This document shows, one piece after another, positions 15,965-32,114 of a DNA stretch of 64,000 nucleotides. A program made the translations under genes and the position numbers. Under the pieces are notes generated by a model. The model was not told where the DNA came from and did no database searches. It saw nothing but the letters and a program-made list of their open reading frames with translations. The stretch comes from Candidatus Bathyarchaeota archaeon. Its GTDB lineage: Archaea; Thermoproteota; Bathyarchaeia; Bathyarchaeales; Bathycorpusculaceae. The stretch spans positions 32,001 through 96,000 of the forward strand of contig CAVYRJ010000007.1 in the NCBI GenBank assembly GCA_963770935.1, read 5' to 3'. The stretch's first letter is position 1. The number at the start of each line of letters is the position of its first letter.

Positions 15965-16996
15965 TCATTTCGTCTGAGGCATTGTCTTTTGTTTTCTCTT
16001 ATAGTACTGTAACGGGTGATAAATCCAGCGGCACAAATCATCCCGGTTCTTGCATACACCGTGCGTTTGCAGAACAGAGCATTGGGGACAGGTGTACTTA
16101 GTTCCCGATCCGCGTTCTCCAGCTATGTGCTCGATTTGGTAGCGGGTTAAACGTTCGTTATAATCTGAAAAGATCTTAAACATCTCGTTGAGTCCCTCCG
16201 GCGTCATCCCAATATTTACCATAAACGAGGTTAAAGTGAAGCGTCCAATGTGGGAAAGATGGTGGGCTTGAGCTGCATCCGCATACAACGCGTTTATGCA
16301 CGGGGGAAAAGCTGCTTGAATGACAACTTTGGGCATTTCCTCAATTTCTTGCCCCATTATCTCCTGCGCCAACTTTGTTAATCCATCAGCGATTGCAACT
16401 ATCTCCTCTGGGAGGTTCTTGATTTCCGAAACATCAAGCCTTTTCTCAACCCGACTCTTCACTTCTTCCTGAAGGAGACGAACAACCTTATCTTGATTTA
16501 AGTAAACCATGCCCTTATCCATAATTTGGTTAACAAGCTTCCACTCAGAACCATGCATGTGCGCGGCATTTTTTAAATAAAAATTGAACCCTATCCTAAA
16601 ATCCTTAAAGGGTTTTCCGTCACTGATATCCCAATTAAAATCTTGAGCTATAGCCCAAATTTTTTCTTTACTTGTTTCCTCTTTAAGCATTTCGGCGTGA
16701 GCAGATTTTGCTACTGCCAATGCAAACCTCTTTTTTATCCACGAATTTTTGGTTGCAATAACCAAAACAAGTGCCGCGGCAAAAGAGGAAATTTCGGTTT
16801 TTTTATCTTTATCCATTTTACCAATATTTACTTCAGATATTGCCTTTTCTACTCGTGCTTGAGCGCGGTCAAAAACAGATTTCTCAGAAGATAACCCTGC
16901 AATTGTAAACTGGAGTTCCTCTATTTGTTTGGAGGCTTGTTTTAAAAATGGGTATTTAGCAAAATCTTCAGAAGATAATGCTGATTCCATTTGCAA
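15965..16996 (-). CDS. priL: DNA primase large subunit
   Basis: FAKYPF, FPPCI, TRYQIEHIAG and YTCPQC...C...C...HPLQYY Fe-S domain. Confidence 0.93.
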   Translation of the reverse strand: MQMESALSSEDFAKYPFLKQASKQIEELQFTIAGLSSEKSVFDRAQARVEKAISEVNIGKMDKDKKTEISSFAAALVLVIATKNSWIKKRFALAVAKSAHAEMLKEETSKEKIWAIAQDFNWDISDGKPFKDFRIGFNFYLKNAAHMHGSEWKLVNQIMDKGMVYLNQDKVVRLLQEEVKSRVEKRLDVSEIKNLPEEIVAIADGLTKLAQEIMGQEIEEMPKVVIQAAFPPCINALYADAAQAHHLSHIGRFTLTSFMVNIGMTPEGLNEMFKIFSDYNERLTRYQIEHIAGERGSGTKYTCPQCSVLQTHGVCKNRDDLCRWIYHPLQYYKRKQKTMPQTK

Positions 16997-17005
16997 TTTG
17001 ACGAC

Positions 17006-17761
17006 TTACTCTGTTTCGATTCTTGGCGCCAAGAAGAAGGTTAACTTCCCCTCTTTTGTCTGCTGGAAGTCGATTCTTACCGGCATGTCACTTGAGAATT
17101 CAAGGGTTGCAATGTCTGAGGTTGCTGAGGCTGCTTTAATGATTTCGGAGAGGTAGCTTAGGCTGAATGTTGCTTTGGCATTCTCCTTAACTTCTAAATC
17201 CAGTAGCGCGTCGTTGCCTTTTTGGAGAGTGATGGTTGCACCCATCAAGTCGCCTGAGGCGCTAAGGGTCAATTTTTCTGGTTCAGCCTCGATTTTTACG
17301 TGGTCGCTTACCAACTGAGCGTCTTCGATTGCTTGGCTTAAGCCTTGGGTTGTGGTTTTGGCTTTGACGTTGAAGCTGATTTTTGGAGTTGGAACTTCTT
17401 CTTCTGAGGCTTCAAGTGTTGGCATGGTAAAGTTACGGCTGTATTTTCCCGTTATTATAACTAGTAATCGTCCAGTTTTATCGTCTAAGGATAGTTCGAC
17501 TGCTTCTTCTTTTCCTGCGCGTTTGAGAAGTTTTAGCAGTTCACTTATGTTCAGGCAGATTTTTGTTGGTTCAGTGGACACGAATTCTTGGAAGATAGAT
17601 TTTGGCCATTCAAAATCAATCATCGCTACGCGTGATGGATCCATGGCTCGAAGTTTTAAGCCTTCGGCGTCAATTTTGAAGGTTGCTTCATCAACAAGAA
17701 TTGAGATGGCAGTAGCCATATCTCGCAGGAGTTTAGCGTCAGACACTTTAAGCTTGAACAT
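17006..17761 (-). CDS. pcn: PCNA sliding clamp
   Basis: LRAMDPSRVAMI, FSLSYL and FFLAPRIE. Confidence 0.96.
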   Translation of the reverse strand: MFKLKVSDAKLLRDMATAISILVDEATFKIDAEGLKLRAMDPSRVAMIDFEWPKSIFQEFVSTEPTKICLNISELLKLLKRAGKEEAVELSLDDKTGRLLVIITGKYSRNFTMPTLEASEEEVPTPKISFNVKAKTTTQGLSQAIEDAQLVSDHVKIEAEPEKLTLSASGDLMGATITLQKGNDALLDLEVKENAKATFSLSYLSEIIKAASATSDIATLEFSSDMPVRIDFQQTKEGKLTFFLAPRIETE

Positions 17762-18196
17762 AATCTCTTCCTCGCATAATCATGTATTGTAAATTTATAT
17801 AGCTATTGATTACGCTTTGAGTTAATAAAATTGTTCCTACCCAAATTCACTAACAAGTCTTTAGCAACATTTCTGATCAAAGCAATAACAAAATACCCGC
17901 AGAAAACATGGTGCCAGAATCATTCCTAGCAATTACCCCGATAGAGACAGAAAATACATGAAATAAGATAGTATGAAACTAGGCTTATAGCATACTGGAG
18001 AACTGGGAGTGCCACTTAACCAGAACTCAAAATGTAATAATCTGCGCATTATGTTGGATTGTTGTGTGTAGGTGCCTTTTCAACAACAGCTACTAAAGAA
18101 AGAGCAAAGCCAGATACTAGAAGCTGTTGGTTTTTGCTTTAAAAGTCATAAAGTATAAGAATGTGTATGTTTCTTTTATGCGAGCTGGTCGATACC

Positions 18197-18472
18197 GTGA
18201 ACGTTCCTAAAGAAGTAAAGACTTACTGTCCAAAATGTAAAGTTCATCAGATTCACAACGTAACTCTCTACAAGGCAGGAAAACGCAGAGCCTTGGCAAG
18301 AGGCGAACGCCACCACGCGCGAGAAAAGCTGGGTTACGGTGGACAAAAATATCCACTGCAGCGAGAATTCGCTAAAACAACAAAAAAACAGACCTTGCGC
18401 CTAAAATGCAAAGTTTGCAGTTTCATGCGTCACAAAGACGGCATCCGACTACGAAAATTAGTTATACAATAA
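18197..18472 (+). CDS. rpl44e: 50S ribosomal protein L44e
   Basis: TYCPKC, GYGGQKYP and KTTKKQTLRLKCKVC. Confidence 0.95.
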   Translation: MNVPKEVKTYCPKCKVHQIHNVTLYKAGKRRALARGERHHAREKLGYGGQKYPLQREFAKTTKKQTLRLKCKVCSFMRHKDGIRLRKLVIQ

Positions 18473-18495
18473 AATTAACGGAGTGGAAAAAATTT

Positions 18496-18693
18496 ATGTC
18501 TGATTGGAACAAACTTATTCCAAAACCGAGAAGCGTCTTCCTTCGGGTTAAATGCCAAAAATGCGGCAATGAACAGCTCCTCTTCAGCAATGCAGTAAAC
18601 AAGATAACTTGCAATGTCTGTGGAGAATTGTTGGCTGAGCCCTCAGGTGGAAGAGCAAAAATTAACGGTGACGTCCAAGCAGTTCTCGAGTAA
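18496..18693 (+). CDS. rps27e: 30S ribosomal protein S27e
   Basis: PRSVFLRVKCQKCGNEQ...CNVCG...PSGGRA. Confidence 0.95.
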   Translation: MSDWNKLIPKPRSVFLRVKCQKCGNEQLLFSNAVNKITCNVCGELLAEPSGGRAKINGDVQAVLE

Positions 18694-18708
18694 GAGATGT
18701 ACAGCAAA

Positions 18709-18774
18709 ATGGCTAAGCGTAAGCTGGATTGGCCTGAAGCTGACGATTTGGCACTTTTTGGAAGGGACAATTAG
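18709..18774 (+). pseudogene. remnant of translation initiation factor aIF2-alpha (21 codons)
   Basis: ATG..TAG reads MAKRKLDWPEADDLALFGRDN; resembles the aIF2a N-terminus (xPExGDL) and sits in the aIF2a slot between rps27e and nop10. Confidence 0.7.
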
Positions 18775-18944
18775 TGGTTTGGCAACTACGCAAATGCGTA
18801 AACTGCGAAAAATACACATTAAATAAAACTATTTGCCCCTATTGTGGTGGACCTGTGAGAATTCCGCATCCAGCCAAATTTTCCCCAGACGATAAATACC
18901 TAAAGTATCGTATGGCAATGAAAAGGAGCGCTACAACAGAATGA
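18774..18944 (+). CDS. nop10: H/ACA RNP protein Nop10 (not in the ORF track)
   Basis: Manual translation from GTG: MVWQLRKCVNCEKYTLNKTICPYCGGPVRIPHPAKFSPDDKYLKYRMAMKRSATTE. Confidence 0.95.
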   Translation: MVWQLRKCVNCEKYTLNKTICPYCGGPVRIPHPAKFSPDDKYLKYRMAMKRSATTE

Positions 18945-19711
18945 AAGAAACATACATCAAAGAATTTGCCGAAATACATCCCAACAACCCTATCCTCATC
19001 GAAGGTCTTCCAGGTTTAGGACTTGTAGGCAAAATCGCACTCCGCTATCTAATTAAACAATTAAAAGCTAAAAAAATCGCCTACCTCTACTCACCACATT
19101 TCCCCTACTTTGTTCTCGTCAACAAAAAAGGCAACGTACGACTCCTAAGAGGAGCATTCTACTATTACAAAAACCCAAAAGGAAACGACATAATCCTCTT
19201 CACTGGCGATAGCCAATCACAAACAATCGAAGGACAATACGAAATCGCCGACCGCATGCTGGACTTCTCTGAAAAACACGGCGTAAAAACAATCGCAACC
19301 ATCGGTGGCTACCGCATGGAACCCAAAGAGAAACCTAAAGTCTTCATAGCAGCAACCTCCCAAGACATCTTAAACAAAGCAATCCAGGCAGGCGCAACCC
19401 TGAGTGCCTCGGGAAGCCCAATTGTAGGCACAGCTGGACTAATACTTGGCTTGGCAAAGTTCAAAAAAATAGACGCTTTATGCCTGCTGGGTGAAACACG
19501 CGGTTATTTACCTGATCCTCTTGCCGCCAAAAGCGTTCTAGAAGTGTTAGTGTCAACTTTCAATTTCGACTTGGATCTTGCTGGCTTAAACGAGGAGATT
19601 GCAAAAGCTGAAACAATGGTTACCCGCCTACAGCAAATAGAAGAAAAACGCGCCGTACAAGCAGAAGAAACCAGAAAACAAGAAGACAAAAAAACAACGT
19701 ATATTTCTTAA
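18941..19711 (+). CDS. PAC2/PbaA-B proteasome assembly chaperone family protein
   Basis: IEGLPGLGLVGKIA, LFTGDSQ and CLLGETRGYLPDP; conserved position after nop10. Confidence 0.9.
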   Translation: MKETYIKEFAEIHPNNPILIEGLPGLGLVGKIALRYLIKQLKAKKIAYLYSPHFPYFVLVNKKGNVRLLRGAFYYYKNPKGNDIILFTGDSQSQTIEGQYEIADRMLDFSEKHGVKTIATIGGYRMEPKEKPKVFIAATSQDILNKAIQAGATLSASGSPIVGTAGLILGLAKFKKIDALCLLGETRGYLPDPLAAKSVLEVLVSTFNFDLDLAGLNEEIAKAETMVTRLQQIEEKRAVQAEETRKQEDKKTTYIS

Positions 19712-20796
19712 GCAAAATTTTTCTTTATTATATCAACCGTCTTTGCGGCTGCTGTGCCATCCCCGAAAGGTGACGCAGAAGGCAACTTCTCTTTTTTCTC
19801 AATGGCTTCCTGTATAGCAGCTAAAATGTTGTCCTTGTTAGTTCCAACGATTTTGGCAAAGCCCGATTCAACGGCTTCCTGTCTCTCAGTAGACAAACGA
19901 ATAACCAGCACCCTTTTCCTTATGTCTGGAGCAGTTGCCTCTTCCTGTATACCCCCTGAATCGGTGATGATTAACCTGCAGTTTTTCATCAAAACCAAGA
20001 AATCCAAGTATCCCAACGGCGGAAGAATCAGAATGTTCTTCATTTTTTCCATTTGGGACAGCATGTTGTTTTCTTGCAGCCGCTTTTTTGTTCGCGGATG
20101 CATTGGGTAAACAATCGGCAGAGGAGATTTCGAGAAAACCTCCATAAACGACTCAAGAAATGCAACGTCATCGACGTTTTCTGCTCTGTGCGCTGTTGCT
20201 AAAGCGAACGTTTTGAAGGGAATCTTCTGCATTATGGTTGATTTCTTTTCGGCGATTGGCAGATGCTGAATTACGGCGTCGATGGCTGTATTTCCTGTGA
20301 GGTAGATTCTGCCCCAAACACTCTCTTTAATGAGATTAGCCTTGGCTCTCTCTGTTGGCACAAACAAGAAGTCGGATATGTGGTCGGTTAGGCGTCGGTT
20401 GTGTTCTTCAGGCATGCGAAGGTCAAAACTCCTTAAGCCAGCTTCCACATGACCCATAGGGATTGTGCGTTTGTTTGCCGCTAACGCCGATGATAACACT
20501 GTGTTTGTGTCGCCTTCCACTAAAACGATGGAGGGCTCAATCTTCTCCAGCAACTGATCCATCTTCATCAATATCTCAGCAGTCTGTGCTCCAGGCGAAG
20601 AAGCATCAATTTTTAATGCATAGTCGGGAGGTGCGAGTTCGAGGTTTTCGATAAATTGCTGAGACATGTTATAGTCGTAGTGTTGACCACAATGAACAAA
20701 TATGCAGGGTAGTTTGGCTTGGTTGAGGGCTCGAATTATCGGTGCCATCTTGATTATTTCAGGTCTGGTTCCTGCAACTACAACTACTGGCTTCAT
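19708..20796 (-). CDS. wecB: UDP-N-acetylglucosamine 2-epimerase (non-hydrolysing)
   Basis: GTRPEIIKMAP, GQHYD, HVEAGLRS, PEEHNR and TDSGGIQEEA. Confidence 0.95.
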   Translation of the reverse strand: MKPVVVVAGTRPEIIKMAPIIRALNQAKLPCIFVHCGQHYDYNMSQQFIENLELAPPDYALKIDASSPGAQTAEILMKMDQLLEKIEPSIVLVEGDTNTVLSSALAANKRTIPMGHVEAGLRSFDLRMPEEHNRRLTDHISDFLFVPTERAKANLIKESVWGRIYLTGNTAIDAVIQHLPIAEKKSTIMQKIPFKTFALATAHRAENVDDVAFLESFMEVFSKSPLPIVYPMHPRTKKRLQENNMLSQMEKMKNILILPPLGYLDFLVLMKNCRLIITDSGGIQEEATAPDIRKRVLVIRLSTERQEAVESGFAKIVGTNKDNILAAIQEAIEKKEKLPSASPFGDGTAAAKTVDIIKKNFA

Positions 20797-20812: not shown

Positions 20813-22849
20813 TTATGTTTTCTTTAGGCATCCTTCCCGCGGCTCATAAATCGTTCCTTCCCGCAGCAGTTGCCCAATCATGCGTTCGATTTCGCCCCTT
20901 GGAATCTTCTGCTTAGTTTCCAGCTCGTTCACAAGTGCACCTTTCTCTACGATGCCCGTTATCTTCTCCATATCCATCAGCGTTGAAAGCACTACGTGTA
21001 ATCTGTCGCGGATGCTCTTTGGTCTTCCAGTCATAATCAAGTCAATGTCCACTTTGTATGAGGACATGTCGATTCCGACTTCCTCCAGCGAACGCTTCAT
21101 AATCGCAATTGCTGCATCAGCATCTTCCGCAGTAACTTCTTTGCGCAAGGCAACGCGTGCTCTGGCTTCAGCGACGCGAACCAGCGATTCAAGCTGACGT
21201 GCCGTTATTGCCACTGGTGAACCTTCGGTTTCGCTTGCGGAACGCATAGCTAAGTAAAAGTCACTGAGGCGATTTAATGCGTCATTGCCAAGCTCTGGCT
21301 TGATACCCTTAGCGAAACTGACATATTTCCGCAAAAGCTCCGCATCAACTTGTGCTTCTACAGGGCTCACTCCTCTTCTGTGAATTTCCAAAATGTGCCT
21401 GGACATTTTACTGTCCGATTCCTTGTTTGGCACATCTCGAAGAACGAAGATTAAGTCAAAACGTGAAAGGATGGTGACTGGTAGGGAAATGTTTTCTGCG
21501 ACGGTTCTGTTAGGTTCATACCTGCCCAATGATGGGTTTGCCGCTGCAAGAACCGCTGTTCTCGCGTTTAATGTAGCAACAATACCACCTTTTGCCACTG
21601 AAACTGTGTGCTGCTCCATGGCTTCGTGGATGGCAACACGGTCTTCGGGACGCATTTTGTCCATTTCATCGATGCATGCGATTCCTTTGTCGGCAAGAAC
21701 CAGTGCGCCTGCTTCAAGACTCATGCTTCCGCCTTTCTCTCGGACGACTGCTGCGGTTAAGCCTGCAGCGGTGGTTCCTCTGCCTGAAGTGTATAAGCCT
21801 CTTGGCGCAATTCTTGCAACATATTGGAGCAACTGCGATTTGGCTGTGCCTGGGTCACCTATGAGAAGCGCGTTCATTTCGCCTCTCACGTTCACGTCTG
21901 GCAGGCTTTTTGAAACTCCTCCGAAGAGCAGGTACATTATTGCTTCTTTGATGTGCTCTAAGCCAAAGATTGAGGGTGCAATGGAGCTCATGATTTTTTT
22001 GTGTACTAAGGGGTCTTTTGATAGTGCAATCATTTTTGCTTCTTCTTCAGGTGTGGGCGGTGATGTTTCAGGTTCTTTGCCTAAGACTTCTATGGAGTTG
22101 GCGTCTAGTTGGAGTATGAATGTGCGGAGTTTTCCCATGCCCATAAGCGAAGGTGCAAAGGCGCGTACGATGCCAACTATGGAAACGTGGTCTCCTGGTC
22201 TTGCAACATCCACTATTTCGTCTCCGATAAGTTTCACGGCTAACACACGGGGAAGTTGTCCTGGTGGGAGGTCTTCGGGTTTTTCTTGCAAGCGGAGGTC
22301 TTGTGAATCTATGAATGTGGATTCTTCTTGGCTAAACTCAAATGGTCCGTCTCTTCCACAATCAGGAGCAACACAAACTGCTGGAGCCTTCAAAAACTGC
22401 CCAGTCTGCTCAACTTGATTCATTGTGCCGCAGCGTTTGCATTTGAAAGCTGCTATCTGAACCATCGGTCGCACAGGTGTAGCCCGAACAACGATGCCTT
22501 CAATCATGATTAGCTTGCTCATCTGTCTTGAGCCGAGTTTTCGAAGTTGCTCTTTACCAAGGAGCTTCACGATTCTAACTATGACTTTCTCTGTTTTCTC
22601 AGCATATTCGGCATCTTCAATTCGAAGTTGCTCGTAAGCTCCTTTGCCTGAATGCTGCAGGTACTCTTCGGGCTTGTTAAGTAGCAGTTGCTCTGCAAGT
22701 GCTTGGTCAAAACCGTAGAGTTCTTCAAAATCGATTGTTAATGAGCCTTTTCCTGAAATGGCTAATTGCGCGATTTTTTGCCGGTATTTTTCTTTCTTGA
22801 AAAATTCTTGAAAACGCTGCTGAGGATCGATAGTTTCAAGCTTAGCCAT
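20813..22849 (-). CDS. mcm: MCM replicative helicase (no intein)
   Basis: GDPGTAKSQ, IDEMDKM, LSRFD, ITARQLE, Zn finger. Confidence 0.97.
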   Translation of the reverse strand: MAKLETIDPQQRFQEFFKKEKYRQKIAQLAISGKGSLTIDFEELYGFDQALAEQLLLNKPEEYLQHSGKGAYEQLRIEDAEYAEKTEKVIVRIVKLLGKEQLRKLGSRQMSKLIMIEGIVVRATPVRPMVQIAAFKCKRCGTMNQVEQTGQFLKAPAVCVAPDCGRDGPFEFSQEESTFIDSQDLRLQEKPEDLPPGQLPRVLAVKLIGDEIVDVARPGDHVSIVGIVRAFAPSLMGMGKLRTFILQLDANSIEVLGKEPETSPPTPEEEAKMIALSKDPLVHKKIMSSIAPSIFGLEHIKEAIMYLLFGGVSKSLPDVNVRGEMNALLIGDPGTAKSQLLQYVARIAPRGLYTSGRGTTAAGLTAAVVREKGGSMSLEAGALVLADKGIACIDEMDKMRPEDRVAIHEAMEQHTVSVAKGGIVATLNARTAVLAAANPSLGRYEPNRTVAENISLPVTILSRFDLIFVLRDVPNKESDSKMSRHILEIHRRGVSPVEAQVDAELLRKYVSFAKGIKPELGNDALNRLSDFYLAMRSASETEGSPVAITARQLESLVRVAEARARVALRKEVTAEDADAAIAIMKRSLEEVGIDMSSYKVDIDLIMTGRPKSIRDRLHVVLSTLMDMEKITGIVEKGALVNELETKQKIPRGEIERMIGQLLREGTIYEPREGCLKKT

Positions 22850-22851
22850 CT

Positions 22852-23406
22852 TTACTTCTCTCCTGCGTTTTCTAAAATCTTTGTTTTCCATTCGGATATG
22901 ATTTTGACTAGTTGCTCGTAGACGAGTCTTTCTTCGCTTGTGAATTTTTTCAGAACCTGGTCACTTTGGGCTGGAGCGGCGGATATGGCGACTATTTTTT
23001 TTAGTCGTGAGTTTACGATGTCGCGTGCTAACTGTTTTGCACGGTCGTATTCCTGGTATTTCTCGGATTGTTTTGAGGCTTGCTCTTTTAGGTCAGCGAT
23101 GAACCTGCGGAGTTTCGGGTAAAAGTCTCCTGGCAACTCAGAGATTTGTCCCGGAATTTGTACGCCTTCTTTCCATTGTACCTTAAACAGTTTGGTGGCG
23201 TCAAGGATTTCGTCTTCTCGGAAATGTACCATTCCTGCTGCAGCAAGTTCTTTTGCTACCCAAAAATAAATCTCGTACTCATTGCCTTCGTCAAAGGGTC
23301 CAACAGTAAGCCCTGCAAGCTTGATTTCTGGGCAGTTGCGGTTGGCTACGATTTTAACTAGGGAATTCTCATAACAAAAGTCCAGTTTGCATATTTTCGC
23401 TGCCAA
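22852..23406 (-). CDS. GINS complex subunit Gins23
   Basis: B domain then A domain (FWVAKEL, LPGDFYPKL, RLKKIV, EERLVY); immediately upstream of mcm. Confidence 0.8.
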   Translation of the reverse strand: MAAKICKLDFCYENSLVKIVANRNCPEIKLAGLTVGPFDEGNEYEIYFWVAKELAAAGMVHFREDEILDATKLFKVQWKEGVQIPGQISELPGDFYPKLRRFIADLKEQASKQSEKYQEYDRAKQLARDIVNSRLKKIVAISAAPAQSDQVLKKFTSEERLVYEQLVKIISEWKTKILENAGEK

Positions 23407-31971: not shown

Positions 31972-32114
31972 AGCATGATCCCCGAATGACCAAGACAGAA
32001 AAATTAGTATTTAAATTTATCCAACTCAAGGTTTTCATATTCGGAGTCTGATTGAATGCAAAAAGTTGCAGAATCCTAAGAGCGATAGTTTTCCGTTCAC
32101 AGGTAAGTAGTTAG

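Follow-up and report, generated by a model that had tools for sequence, protein, structure and literature searches.

Translational coupling by termination-reinitiation was reportedly described by Huber et al. in 2019. In the available text of Huber et al. 2023 (PMC10666635), termination-reinitiation in archaea and bacteria is stated to require gene overlaps or very short distances; a distance of ~20 nt nearly abolishes it, and the last 15 nt of the upstream gene are sufficient in E. coli. The locus described here likewise has co-directional ORFs, with a -1 overlap (TAGTG) and, downstream, a -4 overlap (ATGA). The upstream genes in those systems, as the accessible part of that paper presents them, are real genes or reporters, whereas here the upstream ORF is the remnant of a gene and has no conserved peptide. 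In contrast to that reporter work, the dependence of nop10 on this remnant is deduced from comparative data.

The second point of comparison is genomic. The accessible text of Berthon et al. 2008 (PMC2643942) names the gene set L44E-S27E-aIF2alpha-Nop10 the LSIN cluster and places it near replication genes. We analysed a window of 64,000 nucleotides from Candidatus Bathyarchaeota archaeon (positions 32,001 to 96,000 of contig CAVYRJ010000007.1, forward strand, assembly GCA_963770935.1) that contains this cluster with the same genes, order and strand, and with a COG2047/PAC2-type gene after nop10. Genes for the replication proteins PriL, PCNA and MCM, identified by Pfam, adjoin it here too. Replication and LSIN genes are co-oriented in the account of Berthon et al. 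(PMC2643942, as far as its available text goes), whereas PriL, PCNA and MCM lie here on the opposite strand. The main difference is that the 'I' gene has been cut to 66 nt, its function having apparently moved to a paralogue elsewhere in the genome.

Turnover of duplicate genes proceeds by reciprocal loss of paralogues. Here too, one copy was lost after a duplication that probably took place within the genus. In this case, however, the lost copy is the ancestral, syntenic copy of a core translation factor; its loss appears to have been repeated, and it proceeded by internal deletion rather than clean excision, leaving a readable mini-ORF behind.

An aIF2-alpha remnant between rps27e and nop10

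The cluster begins with rpl44e, encoding ribosomal protein L44e (18209..18472, + strand; Pfam Ribosomal_L44, 87.1 bits). The start of this gene is uncertain: GTG 18209 was adopted, and an in-frame ATG at 18161 is also possible. tblastn detected rpl44e in the extracted region of 120/120 congeners. It is followed by rps27e, encoding ribosomal protein S27e (18496..18693, + strand; Pfam Ribosomal_S27e, 70.9 bits) and ending with TAA at 18691-18693, and then by nop10 (18774..18944, + strand; Pfam Nop10p, 85.8 bits, residues 1-51 against profile positions 1-50). The nop10 stop codon and the start codon of a PAC2-family gene (18941..19711, + strand; Pfam PAC2, 154.3 bits) overlap as ATGA at 18941-18944, and the latter gene closes the tightly packed series. 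The surrounding genes, all assigned by Pfam and all on the - strand, encode the primase large subunit PriL (15965-16996), PCNA (17006-17761), a UDP-GlcNAc 2-epimerase (19708-20796) and MCM (20813-22891).

Between the rps27e stop and the nop10 start lie 80 bp (18694-18773). They comprise a 15-nt spacer (18694..18708, + strand), which runs from the rps27e stop to the ancestral aIF2-alpha start, and an ORF of 21 codons plus TAG (18709..18774, + strand), which we call the scar. The spacer contains an ATG at 18697-18699, 3 nt past the rps27e stop and in frame with the scar ORF; counting from this ATG the ORF is 25 aa long, and counting from ATG 18709 it has 21 codons. The scar TAG (18772-18774) shares its G with the nop10 GTG (18774-18776), giving a 1-nt overlap, TAGTG. 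A preliminary description, made from the letters of the sequence and its open reading frames, had reported the 80-bp gap, the overlap of TAG with GTG and the identity of the neighbouring genes. All three were borne out, the gap and the overlap by reading the coordinates in the sequence, the genes by their Pfam matches. The 25-aa scar peptide matched no Pfam family, and an Rfam search of 17700-19800 returned no match at E ≤ 1.

We globally aligned the scar to four full-length (786-nt) operon aIF2-alpha genes of congeners. Scar nt 1-38 matched gene nt 1-38 with 30-31/38 identities across the four genes, scar nt 48-66 matched gene nt 768-786 with 15-16/19 identities, and the nine bases between the two aligned ends were ambiguous. 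The alignment score was 59.1, compared with 20.5 ± 3.9 in shuffled sequences (maximum 33.7; 0/300 reached 59.1). Since both ends of the scar align to the ends of the gene, 720 of its 786 nt have been deleted. What is left is a 5′ remnant with the start codon and ~12 N-terminal codons (18709..18746, + strand, gene nt 1-38), and a 3′ remnant with the last 19 nt of the gene including its stop codon (18756..18774, + strand). The 3′ remnant contains an AGGG, a weak Shine-Dalgarno-like motif for nop10.

Comparison with relatives gave the same picture. In 54 congeners a 786-nt aIF2-alpha gene occupies exactly the same rps27e-nop10 gap. Translated, the long congener scars still show an N-terminal stretch of the S1 domain followed directly by the C-terminal end of the operon protein, and the shortest scars retain 14 codons. 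The preliminary description had interpreted the mini-ORF as N-terminal codons of aIF2-alpha fused to its last codons after an internal deletion of ~0.7 kb, and had proposed aligning the peptide to the aIF2-alpha termini of relatives and the locus to sister genomes. The end-to-end alignment, in which both ends align at a score equalled by 0/300 shuffles, supports this interpretation, as does the graded series of longer congener scars in which both gene ends are kept; comparison of 120 genomes of the genus found homologous scars in 65 others. We regard it as virtually certain that the 80-bp gap holds a remnant of aIF2-alpha and that the gene was replaced by a paralogue elsewhere in the genome.

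An artefactual gap produced by assembly collapse, or real loss of aIF2-alpha from the organism, has a negligible probability, and no observation spoke in its favour. In a comparison of sequencing runs made on contigs, contigs of two DNA runs from different studies bridged the gap without an indel (X1 record 3, 18646-19261; X4 record 13, 18670-19377); X1 is possibly the sample from which the genome came. Because of these two contigs, and of the homologous scars in 65 further assemblies of the genus, assembly collapse was excluded; against real loss, the same genome holds a full-length paralogue. A contig from an RNA library (X15 record 5, 18701-18853) shows no differences and spans the scar/nop10 junction, extending 73 nt to one side and 80 nt to the other; it gives a weak hint of transcription, in a library that may contain DNA and from contigs that cannot show a single transcript. 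Regions left uncovered in the RNA-library runs carry no information.

The aIF2-alpha paralogue and losses of the operon copy

The whole assembly (1.98 Mb, 18 contigs, 91.4% complete) was searched with the PF07541 profile. Exactly one match was found in this genome, on contig C9. It is an uninterrupted ORF of 262 aa without stops (G000:C9:179092-179877, corresponding to L001:1399-2187 on the - strand), with an S1 domain (PF00575, 49 bits) and an EIF_2_alpha domain (PF07541, 95.2 bits). About 250 bp of AT-rich DNA lie upstream of it, and a multicopper-oxidase-like gene faces it. This paralogue is presumably the working alpha subunit. The preliminary description had left two options, that the gene was relocated or replaced or that the lineage had lost a core initiation subunit, and had pointed to an aIF2-alpha search of the whole assembly. 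The profile search, with its single full-length match on C9, shows the first option to be right and excludes the second.

Downstream of the paralogue lies a 124-aa ORF (L001:1013-1387, - strand) with no Pfam match, beginning 11 nt past the paralogue stop behind a GGTGA motif. By tblastn, this ORF directly follows the paralogue in 43/80 related loci, and it may be a conserved partner gene. In one congener (G092), two full-length copies of the paralogue were found on contigs C8 and C9, each 92% identical to the query; these may represent two strains in one bin, which has a listed contamination of 6%, rather than a further duplication.

In order to place the scar in the genus we used a comparison set of 120 species genomes and extracted the rps27e-nop10-PAC2 region from all 120. 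nop10 was present in 120/120. In 54 genomes the rps27e-nop10 gap measures 795-812 bp; the other 66 carry scars, with gaps of 59-300 bp, and no lengths lie in between. Copy status was counted by hand from the table of aIF2-alpha matches. Among the matches listed, 25/54 full-gap genomes have the operon copy only and 29/54 have both copies. Among the same listed matches, 54/66 scar genomes have an uninterrupted second copy and five (G107, G129, G076, G124, G120) have one that is interrupted or split by a contig end, while the second copy was not found among them in seven (G011, G086, G090, G094, G021, G130, G074), which are 52-88% complete.

A protein tree was built from 76 rows (LG+G4, quick search), comprising 17 paralogues, 52 operon copies and, as outgroups, 7 proteins from other families within the order, and omitting G087, G089 and the paralogues of the remaining genomes. 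All 17 paralogues group together (SH-aLRT 100, stem 0.26) in a clade nested inside that of the genus (99). This nesting points to a duplication within the genus or at its base rather than import from afar. In the same set the two kinds of copy differ at 11 positions, each of which sets at least 90% of the 17 paralogues apart from at least 90% of the 52 operon copies. At two of the 11, positions 49 and 231, all 7 outgroups carry the operon residue as well; the changes there are W49R and Y231W. W49R falls in the SEISS.W/R.IRN loop of the S1 domain, which we take to be the counterpart of the Ser51 region in eukaryotic eIF2-alpha.

Losses of the operon copy were counted on a tree of four flanking genes (1,411 DNA columns, some nodes weak). 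Fitch reconstruction of scar lengths was tried and rejected, as it implied an impossible regain of the full gene; maximal all-scar clades were therefore counted instead. The scar genomes fall into 13 such clades under 6/6 rootings, and this genome sits in one that contains 25 genomes. Given the limited number of columns and the weak nodes, 13 is to be taken as an upper estimate of independent losses. The tree thus suggests that the operon copy was lost many independent times, at most 13.

Three further observations concern the operon copies and scars of relatives. In two genomes (G087, locus L123; G089, locus L116) the operon copy is full-length and frameshifted, with two or three frame changes needed to read through it, and the second copy is open; these frameshifts represent either an early stage of decay or indel errors of long-read assembly. 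Terminal branches of operon copies are somewhat longer in two-copy than in one-copy genomes (median 0.066 versus 0.037; Mann-Whitney P=0.044), which is only a hint because related genomes are not independent. Scars of 120 bp with 34 codons are shared by G016 and the G013/G115 group, clades that stand apart on the flank-gene tree. The common scar could have arisen either by deletions that recurred at one and the same microhomology or by species exchanging the locus.

Probable upkeep of the scar reading frame and proposed coupling to nop10

In 50/66 scars the ATG is present and the ancestral frame runs uninterrupted as far as the original stop codon. A further three have an open frame with ATA in place of ATG, and premature stops occur in 0/53 of these open scars. 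The ATG is retained in 60/66 scars, in 53/66 the distance between ancestral stop and nop10 start is -1 to +2 nt, and the ORFs, measured from the ancestral start, range from 14 to 94 residues. In the other 13/66 scars the frame is broken or the stop is gone (G098, G092, G106, G113, G096, G070, G108, G019, G004, G079, G100, G095, G053), so that an open frame is not indispensable. In eight of these 13 the shifted frame stops 12-13 nt before nop10 (G092, G106, G070, G108, G019, G004 and G079, with G096 at 12 nt), and in three (G113, G100, G098) ribosomes in the +2 frame would run 28 nt into nop10. No compensation was found in the broken scars with respect to the nop10 start codon, which is ATG in 1/13 broken and 4/53 open scars.

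The substitution test was based on 149 unique interior substitutions in four same-length scar classes. These were spread evenly over codon positions (57/44/48), and the scar peptide is therefore not conserved. Nonsense substitutions numbered 0, against 6.15 expected (P=0.0015). Substitutions per site were highest in the spacer (0.51), compared with 0.20 in the first 16 nt of the scar, 0.36 in its interior and 0.18 in its last 19 nt. Across 65 scars, conservation reached 77-100% in the first 16 nt from the ATG and 85-100% in a 12-nt block near the 3′ end, and the spacer varied from 12 to 19 nt in length. On the tree, 17 length changes occurred in the ~15-nt spacer, against 11 frame-state changes in ORFs with a mean of 104 nt, making frame-changing indels about ten-fold rarer per base in the ORFs than length changes in the spacer. 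Homopolymer runs are commoner in the ORFs, covering 10.8% of positions versus 2.0% in the spacer, yet frame changes are still rarer there.

Scar lengths gave a more ambiguous result. Lengths are in frame for 21/30 distinct values, an excess over a null of 1/3 (binomial P=4.4e-5). As a control, we examined short direct repeats in 52 intact operon genes and found that the share of in-phase pairs ranged from 53% for 4-mers to 80% for 8-mers; microhomology deletions would therefore often be in frame without any selection. Under a null of 0.5 the excess has P=0.021, and in view of the control the argument from in-frame lengths loses most of its force. Taken together, the comparative data indicate that the scar ORF is probably kept open by selection. 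The preliminary description had suggested that the mini-ORF may persist to preserve translational coupling to nop10. This suggestion gains comparative support from the lack of nonsense changes and the small number of frameshifts, as well as from the conserved ends of the scar and the mostly TTG or GTG starts of nop10, but it is not proven, and the in-frame-length argument for it was weakened by the repeat-phase control.

Features of the nop10 start are of interest here. In 54/54 genomes with a full-length operon gene, the distance between the stop of aIF2-alpha and the start of nop10 is -2 to +2 nt. Across the 120 genomes, the start codons used by nop10 are TTG in 94, GTG in 19, ATG in 6 and AAG in 1. 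A 16S rRNA was not found in the genome's own assembly, and for this reason the anti-Shine-Dalgarno sequence was taken from three congeners, whose 16S 3′ end is GGAUCACCUCCU, with CCUCCU in 3/3. Read by eye, only the AGGG upstream of nop10 can pair with this 3′ end, through a 4-bp match.

Coupling by RNA unfolding, with the nop10 start masked in a structure, was also considered. The minimum-free-energy fold of 18670-18810 was not unusual (z -1.13; 26/200 shuffles fold as well), and this form of coupling is therefore not supported. Further upstream, an in-frame ATG 3 bases past the rps27e stop is frequent in the 25-genome clade and in neighbouring scar genomes, so that a relay could begin there by reinitiation; in other clades, the ATG after rps27e opens a two-codon ORF.

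These observations can be assembled into the following scenario. In an ancestor within the genus, the aIF2-alpha gene of the rpl44e-rps27e-aIF2alpha-nop10 cluster would have been duplicated, the second copy settling at another locus with an upstream region of its own. The operon copy would then have become dispensable in many lineages and been removed by internal deletions, which in this genome would have left the ATG and first codons joined in frame to the last six codons and the stop. This remnant would still be translated: ribosomes would initiate at ATG 18697 or at ATG 18709, translate 25 or 21 codons respectively, terminate at the UAG at 18772-18774 on the nop10 GUG, and reinitiate there by termination-reinitiation. 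nop10 would in turn pass ribosomes on to PAC2 through the AUGA overlap. The scar would thus act as a minimal relay that supplies ribosomes to nop10, with its non-AUG start and 4-bp AGGG, as the full gene once did.

Published constructs offer a yardstick for such a relay. In the available text of Huber et al. (PMC10666635), 15 nt of the upstream gene are sufficient in E. coli constructs, and here a 3′ block of ~19 nt is conserved; the stop 13 nt upstream of nop10 in broken scars falls in the range of partial loss in the constructs described there. The published effect of distance and the 15-nt result fit a relay that is conserved only at its start and over its last ~19 nt. With a probability of roughly 0.6, we favour the reading that the scar is a translated relay ORF kept for termination-reinitiation coupling onto nop10. 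This would imply that the scar ORF is translated and that translation of nop10 depends on it.

Much of the pattern could alternatively be left by a passive relic, the main rival reading, in which only cis elements matter. The 3′ end would then be kept as the ribosome-binding region of nop10, translation of the scar being irrelevant; the 5′ end would be kept because deletions into rps27e are lethal, and open frames would result from in-phase microhomology deletions combined with too little time. The 53-80% of repeat pairs that are in phase would alone predict most of the 53/66 open scars, 13/66 scars are broken without visible compensation, and the rate of change at the two ends is only about two-fold below that of the interior. 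Such a relic, however, leaves unexplained why 0 of 149 interior substitutions are nonsense when 6.15 are expected (P=0.0015), why the per-base rate of frame changes is about ten-fold lower than that of spacer length changes, why the ATG is retained in 60/66 scars, and why conservation starts exactly at the ATG, after the most variable spacer. We consider it unlikely, though it has to be reckoned with.

The same ORF-upkeep data could be claimed by an explanation in which the scar is translated but kept open for a reason other than reinitiation, for instance to shield the polycistronic mRNA from nucleases or to avoid harmful out-of-frame ribosomes over the nop10 start. Consistent with the latter, +2-frame ribosomes would run 28 nt into nop10 in the three scars mentioned above (G113, G100, G098). 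Shielding, on the other hand, would hardly differ in the commonest broken form, which stops only 13 nt upstream of nop10, and both the exactness of the stop-start junction (-2 to +2 nt in 54/54 full genes) and the non-ATG nop10 start in 113/120 genomes point to reinitiation, making a reason of this kind improbable. That the scar encodes a functional micro-protein would agree with an ORF open in 53/66 genomes; but a product of 14 to 94 residues with an unconserved interior, substitutions even over codon positions (57/44/48) and no Pfam match makes this very hard to credit.

A proposed ribosome relay and its significance

The relay reading can be extended to the genus as a whole. The gene would have been removed up to 13 times, selection each time keeping the start region and the last ~19 nt open and in frame as an evolved ribosome relay; the surviving paralogue, with fixed changes at otherwise invariant positions such as W49R in the S1-domain loop, may have become an alpha subunit of different function, present side by side with the ancestral subunit in 29 species. 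To this extended view we would give even odds. In the literature searched, including a term search of the part of a 2025 review that was available (PMC12548453), we found neither scars of this kind nor aIF2-alpha paralogues described for Bathyarchaeia.

A core initiation subunit has thus not been lost in this archaeon, even though automated annotation of the operon alone could suggest so. Almost universal as its conservation is, the L44E-S27E-aIF2alpha-Nop10 cluster can be broken up, provided that a duplicate has taken over first. The body of the gene is dispensable, whereas the start and the last few codons remain as a readable bridge. The scars offer a testable natural case, with many phylogenetic replicates, of translational coupling constraining gene deletion within operons. 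If the relay reading is true, they would amount to a natural deletion experiment, replicated across lineages, from which the requirements of termination-reinitiation in uncultured archaea could be read. The minimal retained 3′ block of ~19 nt agrees with the 15 nt described as sufficient in E. coli reporters in the available text of PMC10666635.
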